This document shows, piece by piece, positions 564 through 61,243 of a DNA stretch of 64,000 bases. Source of the stretch: Acidimicrobiaceae bacterium. Lineage in GTDB: Bacteria; Actinomycetota; Acidimicrobiia; Acidimicrobiales; RAAP-2. The translations under genes and the position numbers were made by a program. The DNA is taken from positions 73,228 through 137,227 of the forward strand of contig PLON01000041.1 of assembly GCA_003142095.1 (NCBI GenBank). Direction: 5' to 3'. Under the pieces are notes generated by a model that saw nothing but the letters and a program-made list of their open reading frames with translations, was not told the DNA's origin and did not search any database. Each line of letters opens with the position of its first letter. Position 1 is the first letter of the stretch.

Positions 564-1148
564 ATGAAAAGATCCGCCCTGATACTCACGGGCACGGTAG
601 TCGGACTCGTCGGCCTCTTGGGCTATCGGGCCATGTCACCATCACTGCCAACGTTCGTGGCGACACCGACCTCATCGTCTAGTTCGTCGACGACAGCTCC
701 GCGTGCTACGACCACGACGACAGCAGCTCCTCCACCGAAGAACTCCACCACGACGACTACGCCCGCGAGGGGGTCGACATCGCCGCAAGTCCCACCGACG
801 ACGACGCCCCCACCGACAACGACACGTCCGCCCGCGACCACCACGACCATGGCTCCGGCTCCGGCCGCGTCGCGCAGCGCCACCGGTGCATCGGTGAACT
901 ATATCTACGGGGTGCTCTCGGTGGAAGTGACGGCGTCCGGCTCAAAGATCTCAAAGGTGAAGATTGGTTCAATCAACGACGGTGGAAACTATCGATCTGA
1001 ATCGATCGACCAAATGGCCATTCCCCAACTCGAACAGCAGGCCCTCTCCGTTCAAAGTGCCAACATCCAAGGCGTCTCGGGGGCTAGCTACACCTCCGCT
1101 GGCTTTCGACAGTCGTTGCAGTCGGCGTTATCGAAGTTGGGACTGTGA
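564..1148 (+). CDS. Exported FMN-binding (flavinylated) domain protein with N-terminal membrane anchor and Thr/Pro/Ser-rich linker
   Basis: ATG at 564 follows RBS AAGGAG (552-557). Hydrophobic N-terminus, long T/P/S linker, and a C-terminal domain with the flavinylation motif (IQGVSGASYTS, SGA[S/T]). Adjacent to apbE. Confidence 0.85.
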   Translation: MKRSALILTGTVVGLVGLLGYRAMSPSLPTFVATPTSSSSSSTTAPRATTTTTAAPPPKNSTTTTTPARGSTSPQVPPTTTPPPTTTRPPATTTTMAPAPAASRSATGASVNYIYGVLSVEVTASGSKISKVKIGSINDGGNYRSESIDQMAIPQLEQQALSVQSANIQGVSGASYTSAGFRQSLQSALSKLGL

Positions 1149-1954
1149 GCACGGTGGCGCGCTCTAGCGCTGCACGTCTTCACCTCCATCGTGAGATCGA
1201 CGTCATGGGCACCGTCGTCACCATTGATCTCTATGGCGAGGGGCAACTTGACGAGCGGGAGCTCGTTCGAAGCGTTGATGCGGCCGCGAGCGTATTACAC
1301 GACGCCGACGAGGTCTTTAGTACGTGGAAGCCGCAGAGCCCGCTGTCACGACTCCGTCGCGGCGAGCTCTCGATGAGCGAAGTTCCTGCCATGATCCTTG
1401 ACGTTTTAGAAGAGTGCCGTACCGCGCGGCGCTTATCACGAGGTTGGTTCGATCCGTGGTCGATGCCGGGCGGTATTGATCCCACCGGGCTCGTGAAAGG
1501 TTGGGCCGCCCAGCGTGCACTCGACCCTCTGCGAGAACAAGGTCTGAGCGGTGCTCTCGTCAACGCCGCGGGCGACATCGCTAGCTTCGGCGGGCCCGCG
1601 CACGGCGAGCCATTTCGCCTTGGCGTGGTGACGCCCGCCGACCCCAATCGGCTCGCGTGCATCGTTGAGTCACCGGGTGCCGTCGCGACGTCAGGAACAT
1701 ACGAGCGCGGTGACCACCTGGTTAATCCCTTTACGGGAGTTGCCACCGCAACCGCGTCGGCGACGGTGACGGGACCCGAGCTCGGGCTGGCTGACGCACT
1801 GGCAACCGCCCTTGCAGTTGCCGGCCCTCCGGGACTTGAGTTTGTGAAGGCGATCAAGGGCTACGAGGGTCTCGTCGTCGAAACCTCGGAGAGGTTCCAT
1901 GCGAGCGACGGTTTCCCGATGATGGAGTGTTTCCTTAAACGACCACGGTCATGA
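1145..1954 (+). CDS. apbE: FAD:protein FMN transferase (ApbE family)
   Basis: Motifs VMGT, DPTGLVKGWAA, VNAAGDI, VATSGTYERG, ADALATAL. GTGA overlap with the upstream stop. Confidence 0.88.
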   Translation: MSTVARSSAARLHLHREIDVMGTVVTIDLYGEGQLDERELVRSVDAAASVLHDADEVFSTWKPQSPLSRLRRGELSMSEVPAMILDVLEECRTARRLSRGWFDPWSMPGGIDPTGLVKGWAAQRALDPLREQGLSGALVNAAGDIASFGGPAHGEPFRLGVVTPADPNRLACIVESPGAVATSGTYERGDHLVNPFTGVATATASATVTGPELGLADALATALAVAGPPGLEFVKAIKGYEGLVVETSERFHASDGFPMMECFLKRPRS

Positions 1955-2859
1955 CGACAACTCAAACGTCAACGAAAGGCGTGCTTCGTTCGCTGCTCTC
2001 GGCGATGCGCCCATTGCAGTGGGTAAAGAATTGCGTCATCGTGGTCGCGCCGGCGGCGGCGGGCACCCTCACACACTCCGCGGTTCTGGGCCAGACGGTG
2101 ATCGCGTTCGTCGCCTTCTGCTTGGTCTCCTCGGGTGTCTACCTACTGAACGACATCCGCGACCGTGAAGCCGATCGTTGTCATCCGACGAAGCGGTTTC
2201 GAGTGATCGCGTCGGGACATCTGTCAAAGAGGACCGCCCTAGGGGCAGCGCTCGCGCTCCTCGTGCTGGGATTCCTCGTTGCGCAGGTGATAAGCCACCC
2301 CGGTGAACTCCTCATCGTGCTGGCACTTTACGTTGTCATCACACTGGCGTATATCTTCTGGATCAAGAACGTCGCCATCGTCGAACTCGGTGCTGTAGCG
2401 AGTGGTTTTTTTCTTCGGGCCTACGCGGGCGCCGCCGCCTCGCACATTCCGGTCTCGACCTGGTTTCTCGTCGTCATCTCTTTCGGCGCGCTCTTTCTGG
2501 TAGTGGGAAAACGGTCGAGCGAGCTGAAATCTGGCGGCGGTATGGCAACGCGCCGAGTGCTCGCCGAATATAGCGCCAAGTTCCTGGAGTCCGTTCTGAC
2601 CATGTGTGCGACCATCGTGGTCGCCGGGTACTGCCTTTGGGCCTTCGACGCGTCCTCGACTGGTCTGTCGGCGAATCATGACGCCACCCTGCCCGTCCGC
2701 CTGAGCGTCGTGCCAGTCGTCTTCGCGATGCTCTTCATCATGCGCTCCGCCGATGCCGGTCAGGGCGCTGCGCCCGAGGAGCTGCTGTTGCACAACCGCA
2801 CTGTCCAAGTTCTGCTCGCAATTTGGGTCGTACTCATGATCTTCAGCGTGTACGAATGA
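1951..2859 (+). CDS. Decaprenyl-phosphate phosphoribosyltransferase (UbiA prenyltransferase family, Rv3806c-like)
   Basis: MRPLQWVKN, YLLNDIRDREADRCHPTKRFR, GKRSSEL, PEELLLHNR; multiple TM helices; directly upstream of dprE1/dprE2 homologs. Confidence 0.88.
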   Translation: MTTTQTSTKGVLRSLLSAMRPLQWVKNCVIVVAPAAAGTLTHSAVLGQTVIAFVAFCLVSSGVYLLNDIRDREADRCHPTKRFRVIASGHLSKRTALGAALALLVLGFLVAQVISHPGELLIVLALYVVITLAYIFWIKNVAIVELGAVASGFFLRAYAGAAASHIPVSTWFLVVISFGALFLVVGKRSSELKSGGGMATRRVLAEYSAKFLESVLTMCATIVVAGYCLWAFDASSTGLSANHDATLPVRLSVVPVVFAMLFIMRSADAGQGAAPEELLLHNRTVQVLLAIWVVLMIFSVYE

Positions 2860-4184
2860 GCGAAGTACTCGTGGGTTGGGGCGGGCGAACACCCTCGGTG
2901 TCAACGGTGCGAGTACCGCGCAGCGAAGAGGACGTCGCGCGTGAACTTTCGACGGGCGAAGCGATGATTGCGCGCGGGTTGGGGCGAAGTTACGGCGACG
3001 CCGCGCAGTTGAGCGGCGGCGTGGTCCTCGCGAATCGCGGCCTTTCGCATATCGGACCAATTGTCGACGGCGTCGTGACGGTGGGCGCGGGTGTATCCCT
3101 CGACGAACTTCTTGCGATTGCGCTACCTCAGGGATGGTTTGTTCCGGTCACACCGGGCACGCGCCAGGTCACGATCGGTGGGGCGGTGGCGGCCGACGTA
3201 CACGGGAAGAATCACCACCTTGACGGATCGTTCGCGAATTACGTTCGGTCCATGCGCTTAATTACGCCTGAAGCGACGTTGCTCGTGTCGCCCCACGAAG
3301 AGCCGGAACTTTTTTGGGCGACGATGGGCGCGATGGGACTGACGGGCGTCGTCACCTCAGTCGAACTTAACTTGTCACGAGTTGAGACCAACCAGATGAT
3401 CGTCGATACTGATCGGTTCGACGATCTTGCGAGCGTAATGAACGAGATGCGTCTGCGTGACGTCAATTACCAGTACTCGGTGGCCTGGGTGGACTGCATG
3501 AGCGCGGGAAAGACGATGGGAAGATCGATCTTGACGAGAGCTCGACACGCGAGCGCTAACGATGTCAAACACCCTCGTCTCGATCCGCCAGGTCCCGCGA
3601 GGTTATCGATCCCCGTTCGCGCGCCCTCATTCGTCTTGAATGCGTGGTCGGTTCGGGTCTTCAACGAACTCTGGTATCGACGCACGCCGCGACACGAGGA
3701 GGGATCGATAGTGCCACTCGGCACGTTCTTTCATCCGTTGGACGGAGTTCGCGACTGGAATCTTCTCTACGGTAGACGCGGATTCGTGCAGTATCAATTC
3801 TGTGTGCCCGAGGAGAACGCGGACGCAATCTCTGAAGTTATCGAGCTCCTCGCTCGGTCGAAGGTGGCAAGCTTTCTCGCGGTGTTGAAGCGATTCGGTC
3901 CTGGCAATCGCGCACCTCTGTCATTTCCGCTCGCGGGATGGACGTTGGCTCTTGATCTTCCCGTTGGTTCGGCGAAGCTTCCTGACCTTCTCGACGAACT
4001 CGACAGAATCGTCATCACAGCGAACGGACGGGTCTACCTCGCCAAGGACTCTCGACTGCGACCTGAGTACGTTTCTCTGATGTACCCTCGGCTCGAAGAG
4101 TTTCTCCGCGTGAAGTCTCGCGTCGACCCGCACGGTCAGCTCACGAGCGACCTGGCGCGACGCCTTCAACTCGTGGGTGGGTAG
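2856..4184 (+). CDS. dprE1: FAD-binding oxidoreductase, DprE1-like decaprenylphosphoryl-ribose 2'-oxidase
   Basis: ARGLGRSYGDAA, PVTPGTRQVTIGGAVAADVHGKNHH, YQFCVP, LAVLKRFG, GWTLALD, GRVYLAKDSR. ATG at 2856 overlaps the upstream stop (ATGA). Confidence 0.88.
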   Translation: MSEVLVGWGGRTPSVSTVRVPRSEEDVARELSTGEAMIARGLGRSYGDAAQLSGGVVLANRGLSHIGPIVDGVVTVGAGVSLDELLAIALPQGWFVPVTPGTRQVTIGGAVAADVHGKNHHLDGSFANYVRSMRLITPEATLLVSPHEEPELFWATMGAMGLTGVVTSVELNLSRVETNQMIVDTDRFDDLASVMNEMRLRDVNYQYSVAWVDCMSAGKTMGRSILTRARHASANDVKHPRLDPPGPARLSIPVRAPSFVLNAWSVRVFNELWYRRTPRHEEGSIVPLGTFFHPLDGVRDWNLLYGRRGFVQYQFCVPEENADAISEVIELLARSKVASFLAVLKRFGPGNRAPLSFPLAGWTLALDLPVGSAKLPDLLDELDRIVITANGRVYLAKDSRLRPEYVSLMYPRLEEFLRVKSRVDPHGQLTSDLARRLQLVGG

Positions 4185-37286: not shown

Positions 37287-38081
37287 ATGGCCAAAGACAC
37301 CGTAAACCCCGTCGACGAGATCGATCTCTCCGAGACGATGACCAAGGAAGAGTCTGACCGTCGCGTCATAAAAGCCCAGCACCGTTTGACACAACTACGC
37401 CTCTTCAGCGCCGGACTGCTCGAGCCTCAGGCCGTTGGTCCCGGACTGGTCGTGCTCTTCGAGGGCTTCGACGCGGCCGGAAAGGGCGGCGCTATTCGTC
37501 GCCTGACCGCGAGTCTCGACCCGCGCCACGTGCTCGTGCACCCCGTCGGGTCTCCCACCGAGGAAGAACTGCGTCACCATTTCCTATGGCGATTCCAAGA
37601 GTTCATACCGGGGCGCGGCGAGATGACCGTCTTCGATCGCTCCTGGTACGGGCGGCTTCTCGTGGAGCGCGTCGAAGGCGAAATCAACGCCGACGTCGAC
37701 GCGCGTTCCGCGAAAGAGATCGTCGAGTTCGAGCGCATGTTGACCAACGACGGCGTCACGATTGTGAAGTTCTGGTTGCACATCTCGAGCGAGGAACAAC
37801 TCAAGCGCTTCACGTCTCGCGAGAAAGATCCTCTGAAACGCTGGAAGCTCACGCCGAATGACTGGCGTAATCGCGAGAAATACAAGGAGTATCTGAAGGC
37901 GTTGCGCTTCGTGGTTGAGAAAACCGATCAAAAGCACGCGCGCTGGAACCTCATTCCCGCCGAGAGTAAGCCTTACGCGCGCGTCGCGGTCCTCGAGACA
38001 CTCATCGAGCGCTGGGAGCACGACCTCGTGTCTCGCGGCTACGAAGTTCCGGCGCCGCGCCACGGCGATTTCTTAAGTTAA
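37287..38081 (+). CDS. ppk2: Polyphosphate kinase 2 family (single domain)
   Basis: Walker A FEGFDAAGKGG, PTEEELRHHFLWRF, FDRSWYGRLLVERV, KFWLHIS.EEQ.KRF, WKLTPNDW. Confidence 0.9.
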   Translation: MAKDTVNPVDEIDLSETMTKEESDRRVIKAQHRLTQLRLFSAGLLEPQAVGPGLVVLFEGFDAAGKGGAIRRLTASLDPRHVLVHPVGSPTEEELRHHFLWRFQEFIPGRGEMTVFDRSWYGRLLVERVEGEINADVDARSAKEIVEFERMLTNDGVTIVKFWLHISSEEQLKRFTSREKDPLKRWKLTPNDWRNREKYKEYLKALRFVVEKTDQKHARWNLIPAESKPYARVAVLETLIERWEHDLVSRGYEVPAPRHGDFLS

Positions 38082-38117
38082 GTCGCCCGGCCTTGCCCGA
38101 TCTGAAACACTGATTCC

Positions 38118-39071
38118 ATGACTGCTCGCTACGGCATCACCATTCCCTTCGAGGGCGTCACGTTGCTCGAGCACCGCGACTGGTTCCACCGTCTCGCCGA
38201 TCTCGGCTACACCGACGTCTGGTCCGCCGAAGTGGATGGCGCCGATGGTTTCACGCCGCTCACGGTTGCCGCACTGAGTGAAGAACGTCTGAATCTCGGG
38301 GTCGCGGTTACGCCAACCTTTACCCGGGGTCCGGGACTGCTGGCGATGAGCATCGCGGCCATGGCCGAGGTCGCCGGCGGTCGCTTCACCATGGGACTCG
38401 GCGCGTCGAGCCAGCCCGTTGTGGAGCGCTGGAACGGCATCAGCTACGAAAAGCCGTACCAACGCACTCGCGACGTGTTACGTTTCGTGAAACGCGCGCT
38501 CGACGGCGAAAAGATCGACGAGGTCTTCGAGACGTTCGAGATTCACGGCTTCAAGCTGTCGCGTCCCGTGATCAACCGGCCCCCAATTCTGCTCGGAGCA
38601 CTTAGGCCCGGCATGTTGCGTCTCGCGGGTGAAGAAGCCGACGGAGCGATCTTGAACTGGCTCGCCGCGAGCGACGTGGCGCAGTGTCGACGCGAGGTCG
38701 GCGACAACAAGACGATTGCGGCACGCCTCTTCGTCATTCCTCTCGAAGACGCCGACGCGGCGAGGTTCGTTGCGCGTCGCATGATCTCGTCGTATTTGAC
38801 GGTGAACGCCTACGCCGAGTTTCATCGCTGGCTCGGGCGTGGTGAGGCGCTGACGCCGATGTGGGACGCGTGGGGCGAGGGAAATCGCAAACTTGCCAAC
38901 GAGGTCATCCCCGATGAGGTCGTCGACGAGCTGGTGATTCACGGCTCCTACGACGAATGCCGCGAACACGTCGGGCGTTACATCGAGGCCGGCGTCGAGA
39001 TTCCTTCGATCGCGATCGTGCCCTTCGGCGTCGACCTCAAAGACGCCGTCGAGGGCCTCGCGCCGCGCTAG
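38118..39071 (+). CDS. LLM-class F420-dependent oxidoreductase
   Basis: DVWSAE.DG.DGFTPL, TRGPGLLAMS, GRFTMGLGASS, LGALRPGML.LAGEEADG. Confidence 0.88.
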   Translation: MTARYGITIPFEGVTLLEHRDWFHRLADLGYTDVWSAEVDGADGFTPLTVAALSEERLNLGVAVTPTFTRGPGLLAMSIAAMAEVAGGRFTMGLGASSQPVVERWNGISYEKPYQRTRDVLRFVKRALDGEKIDEVFETFEIHGFKLSRPVINRPPILLGALRPGMLRLAGEEADGAILNWLAASDVAQCRREVGDNKTIAARLFVIPLEDADAARFVARRMISSYLTVNAYAEFHRWLGRGEALTPMWDAWGEGNRKLANEVIPDEVVDELVIHGSYDECREHVGRYIEAGVEIPSIAIVPFGVDLKDAVEGLAPR

Positions 39072-40372
39072 ACCTTTTCGGCCTCGAGGAATTCGAGAAC
39101 ATCGGCGAACTTGATCCTCGCGGCGGCCGCGCGCGTCGGAATGTGGTCCGTCGGCACGTCTCGCGCTTCGTAGCTCTTCAAGGCGTGACGCGCCACGGTC
39201 TGGCGGTGGACCTCGTCGGGCCCGTCGTAGATGCGTGCCGCTCGCGCCGCGCGGTACATCGACTCGAGGGGCATGTCGGAGGAGTAGCCGAGCGATCCGT
39301 ACGTTTGAATCGCTCGGTCGATGACGTTGTGCAAGACGCCCGCCCCGTAATACTTGATCATCGCGATCTCGTCGCGCGACGCCGACGCGCCGACCTGGTC
39401 CAGCTTCCACGCCGCGTGCAGGGTCATCAGGCGCGCGGCGTGCATCTCGGCTTGGGAGTCGGCGATCCAGTTCTGCACCGTCTGCTTTTCGGCCAAGAGC
39501 GACCCGTGGGTGAAGCGACTGAGCGCTCTTTCGCACATCATGTCAAAGGCGCGCTGCGACTGACCGAGCCAGCGCATGCAGTGGTGGATGCGACCCGGAC
39601 CGAGGCGAGTCTGAGCCAACAGAAATCCCGAGCCCTCGTCCCCGATGAGGTGATCGGCGGGCACGCGTACGTCCTCGTAGAGGATTTCGGCGTGGTTACC
39701 GAACTGTCCGTAGACAACGTCGGGGTGGTCCATCGCGCCCACGTCGCGCAGGATCGTGAGTCCCGGCGTGTCGACCGGAACGACGAACATCGACGAGCCC
39801 TGGTAGGGGTGGACGTCAGGGTTGGTGACGGCCATCACGATCAAGATGTCGGCGACCGATCCGTTCGTCGTGTACCACTTGCCGCCGTTGATCACCCACT
39901 CGTCGCCGTCTTTGACGGCGCGGGTCTTCAAGAGCCGCGGGTCACTGCCGGCGGTGTTGGGCTCGGTCATCGAGAATCCCGATCGAATCGAGCCACTCAA
40001 CAAGGGCGCGAGCCATCGTTCGCGGATGTCTTCGCGTCCGGTCATCTCCATACCGGCCGCGAGCAACTCGGCGTTCCCGCTGTCCGGCGCGTTGTTGCCA
40101 AAGACGACCGGTGCGTACATCGACTGACCGAGGATCTCGTGCATGAGACCGAGCTTCACTTGACCAAAGCCCATTCCCCCGAGTTCGGGCGGCAGATGCG
40201 CGGCCCACAGACCGCGCGCCTTCACCTGTTCCTGCAGGGGCTTGATGAGGGCGAGTATCTGATCGTGTTCGAGCGAGAGTGTTTCGATCGGGAAAACTTC
40301 GTCGCGCACGAACTCACGCATCCAGGCGAGTTGCTCTTCGTACTGCGCGTCGGTGGAAAAGTCCCAGGCCAT
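39068..40372 (-). CDS. Acyl-CoA dehydrogenase family protein
   Basis: APDSGNAE, FSMTEP..AGSDP, INGGKWYTT, AQTRLGPGRIHHCMR, RIYDGPDEVH. ATG at 40372. Confidence 0.92.
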   Translation of the reverse strand: MAWDFSTDAQYEEQLAWMREFVRDEVFPIETLSLEHDQILALIKPLQEQVKARGLWAAHLPPELGGMGFGQVKLGLMHEILGQSMYAPVVFGNNAPDSGNAELLAAGMEMTGREDIRERWLAPLLSGSIRSGFSMTEPNTAGSDPRLLKTRAVKDGDEWVINGGKWYTTNGSVADILIVMAVTNPDVHPYQGSSMFVVPVDTPGLTILRDVGAMDHPDVVYGQFGNHAEILYEDVRVPADHLIGDEGSGFLLAQTRLGPGRIHHCMRWLGQSQRAFDMMCERALSRFTHGSLLAEKQTVQNWIADSQAEMHAARLMTLHAAWKLDQVGASASRDEIAMIKYYGAGVLHNVIDRAIQTYGSLGYSSDMPLESMYRAARAARIYDGPDEVHRQTVARHALKSYEARDVPTDHIPTRAAAARIKFADVLEFLEAEKV

Positions 40373-40466
40373 GGCCCCCTCTTTCGAGCCCACTCTACGG
40401 CACTGAAAATTCGCCCTGAGTGACGATTCATTCCACTGCCTACAATGAGACAGAGATTGGAGTCAC

Positions 40467-40988
40467 GTGGCGAAGAAGAAGAAAACCAAATCCGACAAGG
40501 GCGACCAGAAGGTGAAGATCGCGGTCGTCGACACGATGTTTGCACGATTCGACATGGGCGCGGCGGCGCGACGCGAGCTCACGAAGTGCCCGGGGTATGG
40601 CGAAAAGTTCGAAGTGATTAGCCAGACCGTGCCAGGTTTCAAAGACCTGGCCGTCGCGGCAAAGAACCTCATTGAGCGCGATGGTGCCTCAATTGTCGTG
40701 GCTCTCGGCATGCCAGGCTCCACCCCGATCGACAAGCAGTGCGCCCATGAAGCGTCGCTGGGCATCATGCAGGCGCAGCTCTTGACTTCGACGCCGATCC
40801 TGGAAGTGTTCGTCCACGAAGACGAGTCCGACGATCCCAAGGTGTTGGCGAAGGTCTTTGACAACCGTTCGCGCGATCACGCCCGCAACGCCTACTGGAT
40901 GCTCTTTGAACCCGACGAACTCGCCAAACGCGCCGGTCAAGGCATCCGCCAGGGCTTCGCTAACGTCGGCACCTTAGAAAACAGCTGA
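40467..40988 (+). CDS. ribC: Archaeal-type (pentameric, lumazine-synthase-fold) riboflavin synthase
   Basis: VVDTMFARFDMG, TVPGFKDLAVAAK, VALGMPG, DKQCAHEASLG, AQL, ILEVFVHEDE, AGQGIRQGF match the archaeal RibC family (M. jannaschii MJ1184 type, recalled from memory). RibH motifs are absent. RBS GGAG. Confidence 0.88.
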   Translation: MAKKKKTKSDKGDQKVKIAVVDTMFARFDMGAAARRELTKCPGYGEKFEVISQTVPGFKDLAVAAKNLIERDGASIVVALGMPGSTPIDKQCAHEASLGIMQAQLLTSTPILEVFVHEDESDDPKVLAKVFDNRSRDHARNAYWMLFEPDELAKRAGQGIRQGFANVGTLENS

Positions 40989-41035
40989 GTCCTCATCGGG
41001 CGGCACCGCAGCGCCGTTGATTCGGTGCATCGACG

Positions 41036-41446
41036 TCAATCCTTCAGACGAAGAATGCCTGCGGCACTTGGCGTAAATCCGCAACTTTCCAGATAGAAAT
41101 TAGACAGTTGCTCCTCGAAGTCCACATGGAGCCACTCGAGGCCAGCCCTCGAACATTCGTCGCGAACAATTTCCACCAGGCCCTTAGCATCGCCACGACG
41201 TCTCAATTGCGAATCAACCATCAGGTCTTGAATCCAAGCATGGACGCGGCCATCCCAGACGACGTTGACAAAGCCTGTCAGCAAATCACGCGCTCTCGCC
41301 GTCACCCATCCCAAACTTCGCAGATCGATTGACGCGCGCCACCCCTCCGCTTGGGCGTCGACACTCGAACCGAAGACGCCTTCGTGGAGAACAAGATATT
41401 CATCATCGGTGAAGTCACCGCGCCACCGATAGGTCCCGGACATCAC
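41036..41446 (-). CDS. GNAT family N-acetyltransferase
   Basis: GFVNVVWDG..HAWIQDLMV....RRRG....LV, EWLHVDFE, FYLESCGF. Confidence 0.85.
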   Translation of the reverse strand: MMSGTYRWRGDFTDDEYLVLHEGVFGSSVDAQAEGWRASIDLRSLGWVTARARDLLTGFVNVVWDGRVHAWIQDLMVDSQLRRRGDAKGLVEIVRDECSRAGLEWLHVDFEEQLSNFYLESCGFTPSAAGILRLKD

Positions 41447-41555
41447 GTCATGCTATGTCGTTGTTGAAAAACGAGGAATGACCTCAGCGTTAACGGGGCC
41501 AACGGAGCGAGTCGATAGGCTCTCTTGAGTCACATTTGTAACTCAGGAGACATCC

Positions 41556-42764
41556 ATGCCCGAAGCCGTCATCGTCGCCACCGCGCGTACTCCCATTGGC
41601 CGAGCCTTCAAGGGCTCTCTCGTCGATCTGCGGCCCGACGACCTCACCGCATTCATCGTGCAGGCCCTGCTCGAGAAAGTTCCTTCGCTCGACCCGCACA
41701 GCGTCGAAGACCTCATCGTGGGTTGCGGCCAGCCGGCGGGCGAGTCGGGATTTAACGTCGCACGCGTCGCCGCCGTTCTCGCCGGACTCGACGACGTACC
41801 CGGCGTCACCGTCAATCGCTACTGCTCATCGTCTCTGCAGACCATTCGTATGGCGGCGCACGCCATCCGCGCCGGCGAAGGTGACGTCTTTATCGCAGCC
41901 GGCGTCGAGACGGTGTCACGTTTCGGCGGCGGGGCGTCCGACAGCGGCCGCAATATGAACCCGCGCTTTCACGACGCACTCGAGCGCACGAAGGGCCGCT
42001 CGGAGAAAGTCACCGAGCCGTGGACTCCACAGCCGGGCCTGCCAGACATATACATTGCGATGGGCCTAACAGCCGAAAACGTCGCAGAGTTCGAAAAGGT
42101 CTCGCGTCTCGAGATGGACGAGTTCGCACTGCGCAGCCAAGAACTGGCCGTCGCGCACCAGGAGAATGGTTTCTTCGAACGCGAGATCACGCCCGTCACC
42201 CTGCCCGACGGGACAGTGATTTCGAAAGATGACGGTCCTCGCGCCGGCACAACTCTCGAGAAGCTCCAGAGTTTGAATCCCGTATTCCGAGAGGGCGGCA
42301 CGATAACGGCCGGCAACGCCTGTCCACTCAACGACGGCGCAGCGGCCGTCGTCGTGATGAGCGATACCCGGGCCAAAGAACTCGGTATCACTCCTCTTGC
42401 GCGCATCGTCGCGAGCGGCGTCAGTGGTCTCAATCCCGAGATCATGGGACTCGGTCCGATCGAGGCCTGTCGCCAGGCGCTCGGACGCGCCGGCATGACG
42501 ATGAAGGATATCGACCTCGTCGAGATCAACGAAGCCTTTGCCGCGCAGGTGATCCCCAGCGCGAAGCACCTGAAGATACCGCTCGACAAGCTGAATATCC
42601 GTGGCGGAGCGATTGCGCTCGGACACCCCTTCGGCATGACCGGGGCGCGCATCATGACGACGCTGCTGAACTCCCTCGAAGACGCCGACAAGCGCTTCGG
42701 ACTCGAGAGTATGTGTGTCGGCGGCGGCCAGGGCATGGCCATGATCGTCGAGCGACTGAGTTAG
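41556..42764 (+). CDS. Acetyl-CoA C-acyltransferase (thiolase)
   Basis: TVNRYCSSS (active Cys), TAGNACPLNDGAAA, EINEAFA, GGAIALGHPFG, SMCVGGGQG. Confidence 0.95.
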   Translation: MPEAVIVATARTPIGRAFKGSLVDLRPDDLTAFIVQALLEKVPSLDPHSVEDLIVGCGQPAGESGFNVARVAAVLAGLDDVPGVTVNRYCSSSLQTIRMAAHAIRAGEGDVFIAAGVETVSRFGGGASDSGRNMNPRFHDALERTKGRSEKVTEPWTPQPGLPDIYIAMGLTAENVAEFEKVSRLEMDEFALRSQELAVAHQENGFFEREITPVTLPDGTVISKDDGPRAGTTLEKLQSLNPVFREGGTITAGNACPLNDGAAAVVVMSDTRAKELGITPLARIVASGVSGLNPEIMGLGPIEACRQALGRAGMTMKDIDLVEINEAFAAQVIPSAKHLKIPLDKLNIRGGAIALGHPFGMTGARIMTTLLNSLEDADKRFGLESMCVGGGQGMAMIVERLS

Positions 42765-42767
42765 GTC

Positions 42768-42995
42768 CTAGCCTTCGCCGGTCAGTCGAGCGCCCGGGTC
42801 GTCCTCGAACGATTGGGCTTCCTCGTCACTCACCGGGCGCGCCTCATCGGGCAACATCACCGGAATTGAATCGCGCACTTCGTAGGCCACGCGCAGTCGA
42901 GGGTTATAGAGCACGTCGCGCGACGGTACGTACAGGAGCGTCCCGTGGTCGACGGGGTCCTCGAGCAAGTTGAGCAGAAAGTTATCGAGGGCCAT
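42768..42995 (-). CDS. Trm112-like (UPF0434/YcaR) protein
   Basis: LL.LLEDPVDHG.L....LYNPRLRVAYEVRDSIPVMLPDEA; directly follows manB as in other actinobacteria. Confidence 0.85.
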   Translation of the reverse strand: MALDNFLLNLLEDPVDHGTLLYVPSRDVLYNPRLRVAYEVRDSIPVMLPDEARPVSDEEAQSFEDDPGARLTGEG

Positions 42996-44344
42996 TAGGC
43001 GAGCTCCTTAATCATGGCGACGACGCCGTCGACGTGACGTCGAAGAGCTTCGTCGTCGGGCGCTTCAACGTTGAGACGCAACAGCGGCTCGGTATTCGAG
43101 GGCCGAAGGTTGAACCACCAGGATCCGTAGTCGGCCGTCAGACCATCCAAGAGATCAACCGCGACGCCGTCTCGTTCGAGGCGCTCGCGCACCCGCTCCA
43201 CCGTCGCGGCGGGACTGCTCACTTCGGTGTTGATCTCGCCCGAACTGGCGTAACGCTGAAAGGGCTTCGCGAGCTGTGAGAGCGTCTGGTCGGATTGACT
43301 CAGAAGTTCCAAGACGACGAAAGCGGTAATGATCCCCGAGTCCGCGCGGTAGTTGTCGTGATAGTAGTAGTGGCCCGAGTGCTCGCCACCGAAGACGGCG
43401 CCGGTTTCGGCCATGATCTGCTTGATGTAGCTGTGCCCGACGCGGGTGCGCACACCAACTCCACCCGACTCGGCGATGACCTCGGGCACGGACTTTGAAC
43501 AGATCAGGTTGTAGAGCACGGTCGCCCCGGGATGGCGCTTCAACATGACGGTCGCCACCATGGCCGTCGTCGTCGACCCGCTGACCGGCTGGCCCAGCTC
43601 GTCGATCAAGAAGACTCGGTCGGCGTCGCCGTCGAAAGCGAGCCCCACGTCGGCACCCGTTTCCAGGATGCGGGCTTGAAGGTCCACGAGGTTCGCCGGG
43701 TTAAGCGGGTCGGCCGGATGATTCGGGAACGTGCCGTCGAGTTCGCCATAGAGAATGTCGAGGTCGAAGGGCAGTCCCTCAAAGACGAGCGGCGCGACGA
43801 GCCCGCCCATGCCGTTCGCCGTGTCGGCGACGATTTTCAGAGGACGAAACGTCGACACGTCGGCGAAGGAGTGCACGTGGGTGACCCACTCGTTCGTGAG
43901 ATCGAGCGTCGTGTACTCCGCGAGTTCGCCTTCGGCCGGCGTCTCGTAGAACTCGTTGGTCATCGCCTCGATTTCCACGAGGCCCGACTCGACGCCGACG
44001 GGCTTCGCGCCGGCGAGGCAGAGCTTGATGCCGTTGTACTTGGCGGGATTGTGCGACGCGGTGAACATGGCGCCGGGCGCTCCGAGGTATCCCGACGCAA
44101 AGTAGAGAAAGTCCGTCGAGGCAAGACCGCAGTCGACCACTTCCACGCCGACGGCGCGCGCACCCTTCGCGAAAGCCGCAGACAGTGATTCACCTGAGGC
44201 GCGCATGTCGCGCGCCATCACGATCCTCGGAGTTTGGGTAAACGCGGCAAAGGCCGAGCCCACCGCCTGAGCCATGCGTTCATTGAGCTGATCGGGGTAG
44301 GTGCCGCGGATGTCGTAAGCCTTGAAAATAGCGGTCGTATCCAC
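42995..44344 (-). CDS. manB: Phosphomannomutase/phosphoglucomutase
   Basis: IFKAYDIRG, MFTASHNP (phosphoserine), AFDGDADR, GGEHSGH, NLRPSNTEPLLRLNVEA. Confidence 0.93.
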   Translation of the reverse strand: MDTTAIFKAYDIRGTYPDQLNERMAQAVGSAFAAFTQTPRIVMARDMRASGESLSAAFAKGARAVGVEVVDCGLASTDFLYFASGYLGAPGAMFTASHNPAKYNGIKLCLAGAKPVGVESGLVEIEAMTNEFYETPAEGELAEYTTLDLTNEWVTHVHSFADVSTFRPLKIVADTANGMGGLVAPLVFEGLPFDLDILYGELDGTFPNHPADPLNPANLVDLQARILETGADVGLAFDGDADRVFLIDELGQPVSGSTTTAMVATVMLKRHPGATVLYNLICSKSVPEVIAESGGVGVRTRVGHSYIKQIMAETGAVFGGEHSGHYYYHDNYRADSGIITAFVVLELLSQSDQTLSQLAKPFQRYASSGEINTEVSSPAATVERVRERLERDGVAVDLLDGLTADYGSWWFNLRPSNTEPLLRLNVEAPDDEALRRHVDGVVAMIKELA

Positions 44345-44355
44345 GGTTGCTGAGT

Positions 44356-47115
44356 CTACCGAGAGGTCTTTCTCCTGCGACGTAGAACCATATAAAGAAC
44401 GATGAGCCCCGAGATGACCGTGAGATCACTGAGCGCGTTGCCGAGTGACAGCGCCGGAGTACTCATGTAGTTGAGTGACACGTTCTTGGACGTCGGCACG
44501 ACCACCATGAGGTTCGGGCTGACGCGATAGGGACCCGTGGCGCCGGTCACGTGCCAGCGTGGGTAGTACGAGATCTTCACCAACATCGGCACGCCGACGC
44601 GACTGACGTGAAACGAGAGCGACTGCAGGCCGACGTGCACGTGGCTCACCGTCACCGACGCCAGGGGCGCGGACTTGGTCATCGTGGTAACGCTCGACGC
44701 GCGCGGCCAGTTGGCGGGACCAGTTTCGGCCGCGTACACGCTCTGTAGTGAAGGCGTCAACCACCATTTCTCGTTCGCGTTCAACCAGTTGTACTGCGAG
44801 GAAATGTTCGCCACGACATTGGGCGTCGCCGCGAGCGGCTCAACCATCGGGCTGTCCTTAATCAGATAGATCCGCCACTGCGCGCCCGGCGCGGGCCACG
44901 TCTTCGTGGTCGCGATGAGTTTGAGATCGGGGTCCTTCTTCGCTTGGGCGAAGACCGCGGGAGAAAAGGCCATGTAGTACTTCACCCCGAGCATCTGGAG
45001 GTGGCGCACGCCTTCGGCGACGTTGAGCGGTCCGTAGTCGAGGCCGACCTGCGGGTCGCTCGGCGCAAGGCTGAGTTCGGACTGGTCGAGGTAGTGGTAC
45101 GGCGTGGTCGGCGTGGACTCCATGAGGAGGCCCTCCATGGAATCCACGCAGTTATCGGTCCAGTACGGCAGGATCATCAACGCCTCGGGAGTGCCCCAAC
45201 GATTCTCCGACGAGTTGTACTCCCACATGGCGCGGCCACACCCGTAGCGCTTCGACACACTTTCCATGGTCGTGATCAAATCGTGATACTCGGGCCACGA
45301 GGCCTTCGCCTGATAGCCCGAGTAGTTCCACTGCGCCCAGCTGGAGACCTGGTTGCCGCCGGTGGCGAGGTGCAGATCATTCGCGAGCGGCGTGATCAGT
45401 CCCGGCAGCGTGGAGCCCAGTCCGAGCACCGCGACAATGCACGTCGCCCAAAAGACGCGCCCCCGGCGCCAAGTCGAGTCAGCGAATCGCGACGTTGTCG
45501 GCGCAGGAGAGTTTGAGCCAACCGGGACCGCTTCACGAACGCGCTCTAGGTCATCCGCGTAGCCAAACTCGTAACCCTCGTCGAAGACGGGTGTCCAGCG
45601 GCGACGTAGTGGGGTGTACGCGGCCCAGCGCGAGGCGAGATATCCCACCATCCAACCAGAGACGAGATAGATGGAGATGAACCAGAACGGAATGACGCGC
45701 TGATTCCAGATCGCGCTCTGCGGATCGAGGACGAAAGTCCAAAACGTGAGAACCGTCACCGTGGCGAGCACCATGCCGAGACGATCGCGCACGACAAAGG
45801 CCACGATGATCGACACGCACGCAAAGACAATGATCCATCGATCCCCGGCCGCGCCCCCGGTCGCGTTGAACCACCCCAGCGTGGAAAAGATCTCGTGCAG
45901 GTTCGACACGGGAACGTTGGTGTAGCCGAGCGAATCTGAGAGCGACTGAGACGTGGCAAAAGGAAAGAGCCACCAAGCCGAAAGGCCGAGGGAGATCACC
46001 CCCGTGCCGAGGGCGAAGCGTACCGGACGTGCGTAGTCCCCGCGTTGCATCGCGCGTTCGTCGAGCGTGCGCGGTCCGCGGCGCTGGAACAGTTCGAAAG
46101 CCGTCATGACAAGTATCGACGCCAGCGCCCAGCGCACCGCTACGAAGAAGGACGCCACCGTCAGCGCAACGCCAACTAGGGCTAGCGCGTAGCCGCGTCG
46201 CGCAAAGAACAACTGGACGATGCGGCCGACGGCGAACAGTCCCAAGAGAACTGTGAAGATCATCGAGTACGGAGACTCGCGGACCGAGAGAAAACCCGTG
46301 CCATTGGTCGTCGCTGCTGTGTCGAAGAAGAACGGAACAAAGGCGAGGCATAAGAGCCCGACCCCAACCGCGAGGCGGTTTGGACGAGTGTCCGCCTCAC
46401 CAAGGCGAGCTTCGCGCGCGATTGGTCCGCCATTGCCGTATCGGTACAGCAGTTCGAAGACGAGCAGTACCGCAACGGCGCCCAACGTAAAGAGCCACGG
46501 CAGTACGTGTGCGGCCAAGGTGGCGCTGAGTGAGAGCGCCGCTAGCCAGTAGCCGCGTCCCTCGCGCATGCCGCGCGCGAAGAGTCCAATCGTCAGTAGC
46601 GCCAGGGCGAGCGAGAACGAAAAGGCGTACTCGCCGGCCATTGTCGAGAAGAGATTGCCGCCGTCGATCGTGAAGGTCGCGTCGAAGAGAAACGGCAGCG
46701 TGGCGAGCGCGAGCGCCGCGGGAATGGGCCGTGGCGCGCGAAAGAGTCGGGCCATTCCGTAGGCCGTGATCGGCATCAGCACCGAACCGAGCACCGTCGC
46801 CAATTTGAAAGCCGCGGCGAAGCCAATGACGTAGCTCGCGAATGTCGCGAGCACGTCGGGCAGAACGAAGTAGTACGTGTAGGCGGGAATGCCCGCGAAC
46901 CAGCCGGGATACCACGGCGTGAAGTTGAAGGGATTGCCCGTCGTCTTTAGGTAGGCCGGCATCGCCAGGTGCGAGCCGGTATCGCCACCGGTGAGGAGTG
47001 TCGACGAGAACAGAAGATTCGGGTGGAGTTCCCAGATCGTGATGAAGATCACCGACGCGACGAGCACGGCGTCAAAGATTCGCTCGGTCGTCCAGAAAGC
47101 TTTGAAGCGCTCCAT
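44356..47115 (-). CDS. Large polytopic membrane protein, PTPS-related / GT-C-like putative glycosyltransferase
   Basis: GGDTGSH, W.PGWFAG.PAY.YYF, GGNLFSTMAGEY, many TM helices, and an extracytoplasmic C-terminal domain (WNYSGY, LVKISYYPRW, RVSPNLMVV). ATG at 47115 overlaps the upstream stop (TGATG). Confidence 0.75.
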   Translation of the reverse strand: MERFKAFWTTERIFDAVLVASVIFITIWELHPNLLFSSTLLTGGDTGSHLAMPAYLKTTGNPFNFTPWYPGWFAGIPAYTYYFVLPDVLATFASYVIGFAAAFKLATVLGSVLMPITAYGMARLFRAPRPIPAALALATLPFLFDATFTIDGGNLFSTMAGEYAFSFSLALALLTIGLFARGMREGRGYWLAALSLSATLAAHVLPWLFTLGAVAVLLVFELLYRYGNGGPIAREARLGEADTRPNRLAVGVGLLCLAFVPFFFDTAATTNGTGFLSVRESPYSMIFTVLLGLFAVGRIVQLFFARRGYALALVGVALTVASFFVAVRWALASILVMTAFELFQRRGPRTLDERAMQRGDYARPVRFALGTGVISLGLSAWWLFPFATSQSLSDSLGYTNVPVSNLHEIFSTLGWFNATGGAAGDRWIIVFACVSIIVAFVVRDRLGMVLATVTVLTFWTFVLDPQSAIWNQRVIPFWFISIYLVSGWMVGYLASRWAAYTPLRRRWTPVFDEGYEFGYADDLERVREAVPVGSNSPAPTTSRFADSTWRRGRVFWATCIVAVLGLGSTLPGLITPLANDLHLATGGNQVSSWAQWNYSGYQAKASWPEYHDLITTMESVSKRYGCGRAMWEYNSSENRWGTPEALMILPYWTDNCVDSMEGLLMESTPTTPYHYLDQSELSLAPSDPQVGLDYGPLNVAEGVRHLQMLGVKYYMAFSPAVFAQAKKDPDLKLIATTKTWPAPGAQWRIYLIKDSPMVEPLAATPNVVANISSQYNWLNANEKWWLTPSLQSVYAAETGPANWPRASSVTTMTKSAPLASVTVSHVHVGLQSLSFHVSRVGVPMLVKISYYPRWHVTGATGPYRVSPNLMVVVPTSKNVSLNYMSTPALSLGNALSDLTVISGLIVLYMVLRRRRKTSR

Positions 47116-47864
47116 CAATGACCTGAGCGCAAGTGGATGACCATGATGAACGCCGTCGCGTTGAACGAAGCGTGCGTCAAGTAGCTCGGCACGAGCCTCT
47201 TTGCGCGATAGGCGACGACCGCGAGCACGACGCCGAGCGCCGCCAGGCCCGCGAACTCGAGTAACTCGCCGTGCGCGAGACCAAAAAGGACGGCACTCCC
47301 GAGAACGCCGAGCACGACCGCGGTGCGACGAGTGACACCGGTGACACCTTCGGCGATGGCGCGAAAGAGTACTCCGCGAAAGAGCCACTCCTCAAAGAAC
47401 GGCGCGAACAACACCGTCATAAGTCCGATCACCACGAAGCCGGTGCCGTGTGACGCGGCGAAAAGATGATTCACCGGCTGATTGAGACTCTTGAAGTGAA
47501 AAGGGTCGTAGGCGAGATCGACCGCGTACTGACACGCGACACCAAGGACCACGTAGAGAAGATCGCTCACGCGCGGGCGCCACTGATCGGGCCACGGCAC
47601 CAAACGTCCCTCGCGATAGGCGTAGATGATCGCCGCCATGAAGCCCGTCCAGAGACCTAACAACCCGAGCGAGTTCGCCCACCACGGCGGGTTCGCGACT
47701 TTCGCGAGTGCGCTCAAGCCGCCCGGATAGTGCGTGAGGGCGACTCCGAGGGCCTCGAGCAACGTGGCGAGTATCTGTCCGGCTAAGAATCCGATAAAAC
47801 CCGCCGCCACAATCGCCACGACGCGTGGGCGATCGGCCAGTGCGGGTACGGAAGAAGAACTCAA
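47115..47864 (-). CDS. CPBP (Abi/CAAX) family intramembrane glutamic endopeptidase
   Basis: APFFEEWLFRG, LFGLAH, H..FN motifs; multiple TM helices. Confidence 0.9.
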   Translation of the reverse strand: MSSSSVPALADRPRVVAIVAAGFIGFLAGQILATLLEALGVALTHYPGGLSALAKVANPPWWANSLGLLGLWTGFMAAIIYAYREGRLVPWPDQWRPRVSDLLYVVLGVACQYAVDLAYDPFHFKSLNQPVNHLFAASHGTGFVVIGLMTVLFAPFFEEWLFRGVLFRAIAEGVTGVTRRTAVVLGVLGSAVLFGLAHGELLEFAGLAALGVVLAVVAYRAKRLVPSYLTHASFNATAFIMVIHLRSGH

Positions 47865-58781: not shown

Positions 58782-59584
58782 GGAGCGAGAGCCAACGCAC
58801 GCGCCGCGCTGGTCCACCGGGGCCAGAGCGAGACCGCCCACGGGCCAAAGGGCTCCGTGCTCGTCGCAACGACGGCGATGGCCTCGTCGGCGTTCACCAA
58901 CAACAATGATCCACTCTGGCCAAAGTGCCCGAAACTGCGCGGAGGCCAGTCGCCCATCCAGTGCTCCTTGTCACCGCGAACTTCGGGCCCCATGCCCCAC
59001 GGACACGGCGTGAAACGCCCAAAGCCGGGCACGATGCCCGCGAGGTCGGGCAGGTACGGGTGAATGAGCCGGTCACGCGTCGCCGGCGCGACGAGGTCTG
59101 AGCGCATCCAGGCGAGCGCGAACGTTGCGAGGTCGTTCGTCGAACCGCTCACTCCGGCGGCCGGGCGGTCAACGAGCGTAGTCGTCGTCATCCCCAGCGG
59201 CAAAAAGACTCGGTCATTCAACCACTCCGCGGCCGGATTCTCGCCGACCAGTGCGGACACCGCGAGCTCCACGCCGTAGTTCGAGTAGATCCTCTTCGTG
59301 CCGATCGGCACGACGGGGTCGCTCTCTTCGAGGCCCAGTCCGCTCGAGTGCGACAGAAGATTGGCGTAGTTCGCGCCCTGCGGCCCGACCATCTCGGTGT
59401 AGCTGTGCAGATCCCAGTCCATCTCGACGCCGAAGGCCATGGCGACAGCCAATTTCGACACGGAGGCCCACGGGCGCACCGCATCGAGGTCGCCGTGTTC
59501 GGCTACGCGCTGCACGGTCCCGCCGTCCATACGCAACACGACGTAGGCCGGGGAACCGGGCCAGTCGTCGTCGAGAGTGCTCAC
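58778..59584 (-). CDS. Serine hydrolase, beta-lactamase/class C-like family
   Basis: WASVSK (SxxK), LLSHSSG, RIYSNYG (YxN), FGHFGQSG. Confidence 0.88.
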   Translation of the reverse strand: MSTLDDDWPGSPAYVVLRMDGGTVQRVAEHGDLDAVRPWASVSKLAVAMAFGVEMDWDLHSYTEMVGPQGANYANLLSHSSGLGLEESDPVVPIGTKRIYSNYGVELAVSALVGENPAAEWLNDRVFLPLGMTTTTLVDRPAAGVSGSTNDLATFALAWMRSDLVAPATRDRLIHPYLPDLAGIVPGFGRFTPCPWGMGPEVRGDKEHWMGDWPPRSFGHFGQSGSLLLVNADEAIAVVATSTEPFGPWAVSLWPRWTSAARALALAP

Positions 59585-59621
59585 TCCTCGATGTTATCCA
59601 CGCGCCTCTAAGGTTTCGGAG
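59585..59621. promoter_or_regulatory. Back-to-back leaderless-type promoters for the serine hydrolase operon and cofDE
   Basis: In a 37-bp gap, TAACAT (minus strand, 59591-96) lies 6 nt before GTG 59584 and TAAGGT (plus strand, 59609-14) lies 7 nt before GTG 59622. Confidence 0.55.
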
Positions 59622-60536
59622 GTGATCACGGTTCTCAGTGGAGGTGTCGGGGCGGCGCGACTACTGCGCGCATTGAGCGACGTCATGGATCCCAGCGAGC
59701 TCACGGCAATCGTCAACGTCGGCGACGACCTGGTCCTGCACGGGCTGACAATCTGTCCCGATCTGGACACCATCACGTACACGTTGGCCGGACTCAACAA
59801 CGACGAACTCGGCTGGGGGTTGCGCGGTGAGACGTGGCGCGTTATGGACGAACTAGACGCGCTCGGCGGTGCGGCCTGGTTTCGACTGGGCGACCGCGAC
59901 CTCGCGACGCACCTCTATCGAAGCCAGCGTCTCACCGAGGGTGCATCCAAGACCGACGTCACTCGCGAACTCGCTACGCACCACGGCGTCAAAGTAACCC
60001 TGTTACCCGTCAGCGACGACCCGATCGCCACGGAGTTTCTTACCGAGGACGGGCGACTGAGCTTTCAGGAGTACTTCGTTCAACGCCACCATGACGTGGT
60101 GGTGAGCGGTGTCGAGATCACCGGTGTCGAGAGCGCGAGAGCGACGAACGACGTCGAACGCGCCCTCGAGCAGTCCGCCCGACTGGTTATTGCGCCCTCG
60201 AACCCCGTCATCTCCATCAACCCAATTCTCCAGGTCAGAGGGGTTCGCGAGGCGCTGCGCGCTCGACGCGACGACGTCGTCGCCGTCTCTCCGATCATCC
60301 AAGGCGCGGCGCTGAAGGGACCCGCCGACCGGCTGATGCGAGAACTCGGCTACGAGTCGAGCGCTCTCGGTGTCGTCGATTTCTACGGTGATCTCGTTGG
60401 CACCTGGATCATCGACGAGGCTGACGCCGCCCTCGCTGACGCGATTCGCAGTCGCGGCGCACGCGTTGAAGTCACGACCACGATCATGGCCGAACCCGAG
60501 AACGCGCGTCGCCTCGCCAAAGTGGTTTTGTCGTGA
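59622..60536 (+). CDS. cofD: 2-phospho-L-lactate (or PEP) transferase for F420 synthesis
   Basis: LSGGVGAARLL, IVNVGDD...HGL.ICPDLDT, WFRLGDRDLATH, APSNP.ISI.PIL, VSPII.G.ALKGPA. GTG at 59622. Confidence 0.93.
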   Translation: MITVLSGGVGAARLLRALSDVMDPSELTAIVNVGDDLVLHGLTICPDLDTITYTLAGLNNDELGWGLRGETWRVMDELDALGGAAWFRLGDRDLATHLYRSQRLTEGASKTDVTRELATHHGVKVTLLPVSDDPIATEFLTEDGRLSFQEYFVQRHHDVVVSGVEITGVESARATNDVERALEQSARLVIAPSNPVISINPILQVRGVREALRARRDDVVAVSPIIQGAALKGPADRLMRELGYESSALGVVDFYGDLVGTWIIDEADAALADAIRSRGARVEVTTTIMAEPENARRLAKVVLS

Positions 60537-61243
60537 GCGAACTTCGCCTGACGGCACTCGCGAGTCCCGTCAACGTTCAGCGCGGAAACGATCTCGTGAC
60601 CATGTTGATCGACGCGCTCGAGACCGCGGGCGAAACGTTGCGTCGTCACGACCTCGTGATCGTGACGAGCAAGGTGGTCTCGAAGTCCGAGGGTCAGGTC
60701 GTCGCCTACGACGGCACCGACGAACACAAAGTCGCCATCGTCGAGGGCGAGTCAGTGCGCGTCCTTCGACGACGCGGCACACTGCGCATTACAGAAACGC
60801 GTCACGGATTCATCAACGCCAACGCCGGGGTCGATCTCTCCAACACTGAGGACGGCACGGCGGTGCTCTTACCAAAAGATCCCGATCGCTCGGCGCGGCG
60901 ACTACGCGCGGAGTTGGGCCGGCGCCTCGACGTGGATGTCGCCGTGATCATTACCGACACCTTCGGTCGCGTGTGGCGTCAAGGCGTCACGGACGTGGCG
61001 CTGGGATCTGCGGGCATCAAGCCACTGCTCGATCTGCGCGGCACGCTCGACGCCAACGGTCGACTACTCGAAGCAACGGAGGTCGCCATCGCCGACGAAA
61101 TTGCGGGCGCCGCCAATCTCGTTCTGCACAAAGCGGCCGCGACGCCCTTCGCGCTCGTGCGGGGACTCGACGAAACTTTCTTTGGACCCGGGTCGATCGG
61201 CGACAACATCGTGCGTTCGAAGAACGACGACCTGTTTCGTTGA
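60533..61243 (+). CDS. cofE: Coenzyme F420-0:L-glutamate ligase (single-domain)
   Basis: VTSKVVSKSEG, ANAGVDLSN, LLPKDPD.SA, IITDTFGRVWRQG.TDVALG, AIADEIAGAANL. Confidence 0.92.
   Translation: MSELRLTALASPVNVQRGNDLVTMLIDALETAGETLRRHDLVIVTSKVVSKSEGQVVAYDGTDEHKVAIVEGESVRVLRRRGTLRITETRHGFINANAGVDLSNTEDGTAVLLPKDPDRSARRLRAELGRRLDVDVAVIITDTFGRVWRQGVTDVALGSAGIKPLLDLRGTLDANGRLLEATEVAIADEIAGAANLVLHKAAATPFALVRGLDETFFGPGSIGDNIVRSKNDDLFR

Follow-up and report, generated by a model that had tools for sequence, protein, structure and literature searches.

The window, by which we mean the whole 64,000-nucleotide stretch of DNA that was analysed, contains at 40467..40988 on the plus strand an open reading frame of 173 amino acids with a GTG start codon. 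We assign it as the coding sequence of an archaeal-type riboflavin synthase (RibC_arch, predicted EC 2.5.1.9), using TIGR01506, PF00885, the PDB entries 2b98/2b99 and an AF2 model. A Shine-Dalgarno sequence GGAG is read on the plus strand at 40459..40462, 4 nt ahead of the GTG at 40467, and (GAT)CGGAG or TTGGAG stands at the matching place in most orthologous upstream regions. Upstream lie a divergent acyl-CoA dehydrogenase gene (39068..40393, minus strand; Pfam Acyl-CoA_dh N, M and C) and an F420-dependent LLM oxidoreductase gene (38118..39071, plus strand; TIGR03841, 281.2 bits, cut-off 213.65). Downstream there is a convergent GNAT acetyltransferase gene (41036..41446, minus strand; Pfam Acetyltransf_1/7/10, with no NCBIfam match), followed by an acetyl-CoA C-acetyltransferase (thiolase) gene (41556..42764, plus strand; NF005890, 698 bits).

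The six motifs on which the original prediction was based are all present in the 173-aa translation. They are DTMFARFDMG (residues 22-31), TVPGFKDL (54-61), LGMPG (80-84), DKQCAHEAS (89-97), EVFVHEDE (113-120) and GQGIRQG (157-163). The protein has thousands of homologues in the databases, so this is more than a chance reading frame. The GC3 of the gene is 0.77, compared with 0.75-0.83 for its neighbors, and the median dN/dS against 39 ungapped orthologues is ~0.11, a value that is only rough because dS is near saturation. The homologues are already named riboflavin synthase in public databases, and the annotation pipelines have them right.

The profile scores separate the protein clearly from the other enzymes of this part of the pathway. 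TIGR01506 (ribC_arch, NCBIfam) gives 168.6 bits against a curated equivalog cut-off of 100.55, with residues 17-169 aligned over positions 1-150 of the 151 in the model. The lumazine synthase equivalog TIGR00114 gives a partial match over residues 36-112 with 30.4 bits against a cut-off of 84.6, which does not place the protein in RibH. In the Pfam scan PF00885 (DMRL_synthase) was the sole match, at 54.9 bits; PF00677 (Lum_binding) was absent from the 173-aa protein, which puts it outside the trimeric RibE/RibC class. The assignment as an archaeal-type riboflavin synthase, neither RibH nor trimeric RibE, is therefore upheld. The best match in the PDB was the enzyme of M. jannaschii (2B98/2B99) with E = 2e-45 and ~50% identity, residues 17-169 aligning with 4-153. 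In the same sequence search the true lumazine synthases appeared at E ~0.1.

We examined conservation using 28 family representatives, one for each cluster at 50% identity, and an AF2 monomer model built on the same 28 sequences had a pLDDT of 93.4. Foldseek found 2b99 and 2b98 as the best structural matches to this model, with TM 0.93-0.95 and an rmsd of 1.2-1.6 Å. Lumazine synthases were the next best, at TM ~0.66 and ~22% identity. All 10 invariant columns of the alignment (T54, V55, P56, G57, K59, G84, D89, L127, R161 and G163) and all 11 nearly invariant columns are kept in the window protein, including the family features DT.F, TVPG.K, G84, D89, E120, R134, H138 and AG.G.R.G. A D-x-x-C catalytic region had been ascribed to this type of enzyme. 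This could not be sustained as a family-defining feature because the cysteine of DKQC, C92, is replaced by serine in 10 of the 28 representatives; D89 is invariant. The archaeal riboflavin synthase of M. jannaschii is a homopentamer with its active sites at the subunit interfaces, and by its likeness to that enzyme the Acidimicrobiales protein is probably pentameric as well.

Ahead of the conserved core there is a Lys-rich N-terminal tail of residues 1-16, MAKKKKTKSDKGDQKV, encoded at 40467..40514 on the plus strand. The extension noticed originally is thus real, with seven lysines in these 16 residues. It is also a property of the group, since 113 of the 119 close homologues keep a basic tail 10 or more residues long; its median length is 12 aa with six K/R, and it follows the pattern MAKKKK..K.VK. 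No Lys-rich tail occurs in the archaeal relatives, in the M. jannaschii enzyme or in the protein of S. camelliae. The tail has no secondary structure in the AF2 model. A-rich lysine codons placed after the start codon may be a trivial aid to initiation in a GC-rich genome. Alternatively the tail might have a function of its own, for example docking to a partner or to a polyanion.

The gene stands apart from other genes of riboflavin synthesis, as had been claimed for it. A Pfam scan identified no rib gene among the 49 open reading frames of the window, and tblastn with E. coli RibA, RibB, RibC, RibD and RibE gave no match, whether in the window or in 80 related loci searched out to 10 kb from the gene. 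Rfam, applied to the whole window with gathering thresholds and to 39900-41700 with the looser limit of E ≤ 1, gave no FMN riboswitch. Association with rib genes is usual in this family, if not strictly defining; it is seen in the archaeal relatives and in Streptomyces, and is lacking here. With rib genes unlinked to it throughout this clade, the gene gains no functional support from its surroundings here.

Comparison of the orthologous upstream regions revealed a putative −10-like promoter hexamer, TACAAT, at 40441..40446 on the plus strand. Of 46 orthologous upstream regions (set L001-L048), 36 have the pattern TA[CG]A[AC]T with a Shine-Dalgarno sequence 6-17 nt beyond it; in shuffled controls the number averaged 0.75 and never exceeded 4. 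A generic sigma-70 scan, in which a −35 box was required, returned no promoter and no plus-strand terminator. It is likely from the conserved hexamer that the riboflavin synthase gene has its own promoter and a leader of ~14 nt. Such a leader would be too short to hold a riboswitch, and the gene would therefore not be under FMN-riboswitch control. A further conserved motif, CCACTCTA[CG], which reads TAGAGT on the minus strand, is found beside the start of the divergent acyl-CoA dehydrogenase gene, and is probably the −10 element of that gene. Metatranscriptome contigs from the same peat study (three assemblies) included none over 39000-43000, a result that does not show absence of expression.

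Related genes are widespread and their surroundings are conserved. Among the protein homologues, the top 120 share 75-94% identity with that of the window; those with a name are called riboflavin synthase, and their organisms, where named, are Acidimicrobiales or Actinomycetota. A relative is encoded in at least 498 species genomes, some of which may be archaeal. The best 80 of these (GTDB representatives) have proteins 69-88% identical to that of the window, and most derive from samples of peat, bog, palsa or soil. Nearly all are labelled Acidimicrobiales, Acidimicrobiaceae or broader actinobacterial MAGs, and two are labelled Acidobacteriota. The gene is also present on the complete chromosomes OY969907.1, OY970152.1 and OY970319.1. 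About 45 of the 80 loci keep the gene order GT2, YfhO, PPK2, F420-LLM, (divergent acyl-CoA dehydrogenase), riboflavin synthase, thiolase, Trm112, phosphomannomutase, large membrane protein and FtsH. The gene might have been an isolated or recent arrival by transfer. This is contradicted by the broad syntenic distribution across Acidimicrobiales, an outcome that the original prediction had itself named as one that would lower the novelty.

The individual neighbors are conserved to differing extents. Within 10 kb, 52 of the 80 loci have an acyl-CoA dehydrogenase homologue, which is immediately upstream in about half of those. The F420-LLM is present in 40 of the 80, and in loci without the acyl-CoA dehydrogenase it is the immediate upstream neighbor of the riboflavin synthase gene. 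On the downstream side a thiolase homologue is located within 10 kb in 47 of the 80 loci, and in ~41 it is the next gene, starting 475-560 nt past the start of the riboflavin synthase. The divergent acyl-CoA dehydrogenase is still upstream in a more distant homologous locus of Acidimicrobiales type (L087, 65% identity). A second group of loci (L049-L080, ~72-74% identity) has a different neighborhood; the one locus of these that was scanned, L064, contains acyl-CoA dehydrogenases, biotin synthase, an HNH protein and an acyl-CoA synthetase, and no rib genes. The large membrane protein is encoded in the window at 44356-47388 on the minus strand. It is a predicted membrane protein of 1010 aa with no Pfam or NCBIfam match; in 33 related genomes it is found in synteny, flanked by phosphomannomutase and FtsH, and is 49-74% identical.

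The GNAT gene behaves differently. No homologue of it was found in any of the 80 related loci. It is present without differences in independent peat assemblies. Because it is absent from all 80 loci, it is taken to be a local insertion specific to the window, between the riboflavin synthase and thiolase genes. RibT of B. subtilis is also a GNAT protein. A RibT-like role for the gene at 41036-41446 was considered and rejected, given its absence from 80 of 80 loci and the lack of an NCBIfam match.

The host is a bacterium of the Acidimicrobiales (Actinomycetota) from peat. The window encodes functions typical of actinobacteria, namely ApbE, decaprenyl-phosphate phosphoribosyltransferase, DprE1, CofD, CofE, FtsH, PPK2, thiolase and phosphomannomutase. 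All of the flavin- and F420-related genes listed originally (ApbE, DprE1 with 507 bits, CofD, CofE and two LLM enzymes) were confirmed in the window. ApbE, decaprenyl-phosphate phosphoribosyltransferase and DprE1 form a cluster at 1145-4184, an arabinan-type cell-envelope pathway in this Acidimicrobiales genome, and an adjacent CofD/CofE pair for F420 synthesis is situated apart from it at 59577-61243. Thirteen of the listed metagenome runs, mostly from peat, contain 100% of the words sampled from the region. In three of these runs the stretch 38000-42746 or 39780-42746 is covered by a single assembled contig without any difference. With independent peat contigs covering the locus exactly, and flanks of actinobacterial type, the genome is bacterial and the contig is not chimeric, as originally supposed.

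The downstream side of the region has an unusual feature. The Logan contigs of three independent peat runs all end at 42746-42754, within the segment 42676-42842, where the 3' end of the thiolase gene and the Trm112 gene show a spike in depth of 181x compared with ~14x; one run has skips of 117-172 nt. The shared break and the depth spike suggest that this segment is common to several co-occurring strains or species.

We next consider the origin of the gene. The family is small once clustered at 50%, with 239 representatives reaching E ≤ 1e-3 and 39 reaching E ≤ 1e-30. Beyond the bacterial clade, the nearest sequences are 59-62% identical, and are carried on contigs with archaeal markers (ribosomal proteins S17e and L21e, Rpb4, diphthamide synthase and the A-type ATPase subunit D). 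In these archaeal relatives the gene lies within a ribB - ribL (CTP_transf_like) - RS - ribH cluster. Named relatives include Thermoplasmata and Micrarchaeia. Another bacterial copy occurs on a metagenomic contig with actinobacterial-looking genes, and a further one, annotated ribC, lies on plasmid NZ_CP115301.1 of S. camelliae; its product shares 59.5% identity with the window protein. In a neighbor-joining tree (155 columns, 100 bootstraps, distances computed in numpy) all the sampled bacterial sequences, including the Streptomyces ribC, form one clade with a modest bootstrap value of 64, and the subclade containing the window protein has 96-99. The deeper nodes have values below 50.

A transfer from an archaeon to a bacterium was part of the original prediction. 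An ultimate archaeal origin is plausible, with the nearest outside relatives being archaeal and rib-clustered, but a recent or isolated event is not what is found. The simplest reading of the sequences would be one old transfer from an archaeon to Actinomycetota followed by vertical descent in Acidimicrobiales, and both its direction and its age are inferred.

Some members of the family have unusual domain arrangements. Fusions of riboflavin synthase and lumazine synthase domains of ~290-325 aa were observed (P0144, P0145, P0157, P0169, P0171, P0174, P0192 and P0311-P0319), one of them named Micrarchaeia. P0170 has the reversed order, with lumazine synthase preceding riboflavin synthase. P0130 and P0131 (381-408 aa) have a Pro-rich N-terminal extension of 230-250 residues ahead of the riboflavin synthase domain.

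The window protein can be compared with four known enzymes. It is most like the M. jannaschii riboflavin synthase (MJ1184), sharing 50% identity in the core, the fold and the invariant residues; it differs from this and the other archaeal enzymes in having a bacterial host and the 16-residue Lys-rich tail, and its gene lies outside any rib cluster, whereas those of its close archaeal relatives are within one. Lumazine synthase RibH, which catalyses the preceding step of the pathway, is a paralogue with a flavodoxin-like fold in the same Pfam family, PF00885, but is separated by its low identity and TM score and by TIGR00114. The trimeric RibE/RibC (PF00677) carries out the same overall reaction, EC 2.5.1.9, which for the window protein is assigned by homology; the two are unrelated in sequence and fold. 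Although the pentameric and trimeric types catalyse the same reaction, they do so with a pentacyclic intermediate of opposite stereochemistry (PMC13151069).

The fourth enzyme is the archaeal-type copy of Streptomyces. The S. camelliae locus (L090, NZ_CP115301.1 98639-117097) is a roseoflavin-type cluster on a 273-kb linear plasmid containing ribA, the archaeal-type ribC, ribX and rosB, and this ribC corresponds to the RibE2 of roseoflavin producers. The Streptomyces protein (that of S. davaonensis and S. berlinensis, and here of S. camelliae) is another actinomycetotal enzyme of archaeal type, in the same modestly supported clade as the window protein. Its gene is part of a specialised-metabolite cluster, here on a plasmid, whereas the Acidimicrobiales gene is chromosomal and syntenic. 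In addition the S. camelliae protein starts directly at the conserved core, where the window protein has its Lys-rich tail. RibE2 of the roseoflavin producers has been described as an additional synthase, and attributed to horizontal transfer (PMC11039241). The occurrence of this type of enzyme in bacteria has thus been reported before. It is the sole bacterial case that we found in the literature; among the papers searched, none linked Acidimicrobiia to riboflavin synthase or to the biosynthesis of riboflavin, and TIGR01506 was not mentioned in any.

Taking these results together, we believe that the gene encodes a functional archaeal-type riboflavin synthase, an old archaeal gene that has been vertically inherited at a fixed position in peat Acidimicrobiales, and we place the probability of this at about 0.85. 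Elsewhere in the family a link to flavin synthesis is seen in the archaeal rib clusters, in the Streptomyces gene beside ribA and rosB, and in the fusions with lumazine synthase domains. Catalytic activity, i.e. dismutation of 6,7-dimethyl-8-ribityllumazine, is probable from the likeness to the M. jannaschii enzyme, which is characterised and 50% identical. Judged from this homology, a pair of 6,7-dimethyl-8-ribityllumazine molecules would bind at the subunit interface and dismutate, with a four-carbon unit passing between them. The products would be riboflavin and 5-amino-6-ribitylamino-2,4(1H,3H)-pyrimidinedione, the latter being recycled by lumazine synthase, and potentially also supplying the synthesis of FO and F420. 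That the pyrimidinedione feeds F420 (FO) synthesis was remarked upon in the original prediction. It is correct as general biochemistry; it holds for any riboflavin synthase and is not evidence particular to this locus. The gene would have come into Actinomycetota from an archaeon long ago, and thereafter have been inherited vertically at one chromosomal position, in the PPK2 ... FtsH neighborhood. Transcription would start from its own conserved −10 element, giving the leader of ~14 nt.

The conserved position and the strong purifying selection favor a housekeeping role, and the enzyme may be the housekeeping riboflavin synthase of these bacteria, possibly the only one. That it has replaced the canonical RibE in these bacteria we regard as close to an even chance, and probably a little below it. 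The fuller scenario, in which across much of Acidimicrobiales RibE has been fully displaced, the gene has become uncoupled from the rib operon and the FMN riboswitch, and a lineage-specific Lys-rich tail has been gained, is somewhat less likely than not.

The most serious alternative is that the enzyme is an accessory second riboflavin synthase that works beside a canonical trimeric RibE, boosting or buffering the supply of flavin or F420 precursors. This departs from the preferred reading only on whether the enzyme is the sole synthase. The Streptomyces precedent makes coexistence with RibE possible, because there the rosB cluster is described as contributing an extra synthase, RibE2 (PMC11039241), and the absence of linkage to any rib gene and the conserved F420-dependent LLM neighbor point in the same direction. 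Yet a redundant gene is less likely to be kept at a fixed position amid metabolic and housekeeping genes in dozens of species, the dN/dS of ~0.11 indicates strong constraint, and no specialised-metabolite genes are nearby. We consider the accessory role a real possibility, somewhat short of even odds. A different view of the F420-dependent neighbor is that the enzyme has been re-purposed, either for another lumazine or deazaflavin substrate tied to F420, or as a scaffold acting via its basic tail. The clade-specific tail in 113 of the 119 homologues and the detachment from rib genes could be read in this way. However, every residue that is invariant in the family has been retained, the core shares 50-62% identity with archaeal enzymes, rib-clustered ones among them, and the lysine codons after the start may merely favor translation initiation. 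Re-purposing is thus improbable.

Two further explanations are weaker still. Were the protein a RibH paralogue devoid of riboflavin synthase activity, PF00885 as the sole Pfam match and lumazine synthases as the next-best structures would be accounted for. Against this stand the scores on both sides of the two equivalog cut-offs (30.4 against 84.6 for TIGR00114, and 168.6 against 100.55 for TIGR01506), the 50% identity to a characterised riboflavin synthase compared with ~22% to lumazine synthases, and the presence in archaeal relatives of a separate RibH gene adjoining that of the riboflavin synthase; we think this very improbable. Finally, the predominantly archaeal membership of the family, and a gene standing alone without rib partners, might have indicated a recent horizontal acquisition, or a contig that is chimeric or archaeal by artefact. 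The GC3 is native, and the flanks are bacterial and of actinobacterial type (DprE1, DPPR synthase and FtsH). Recent acquisition or a chimeric contig is refuted by the synteny in ~45 Acidimicrobiales genomes together with the independent single contigs that span 38000-42746 with no differences, and its probability is next to nothing.

The enzyme of the peat Acidimicrobiales, read as an anciently acquired and vertically inherited riboflavin synthase, is real, correctly identified and ordinary in kind; no new enzyme, mechanism or system is involved. Reviews present the pentameric riboflavin synthase as archaeal, and essentially as an enzyme of methanogens (PMC5397151, PMC13151069). Its presence at a conserved chromosomal position in an abundant bacterial order of soil and peat would be a modest widening of that archaeal-only picture. 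The remaining interest lies in the possible displacement of RibE throughout the lineage and in the conserved basic tail. If this is the sole synthase of these bacteria, it bears on the calling of pathway completeness in MAGs, and tools that look for PF00677 only would mis-score them as riboflavin auxotrophs.
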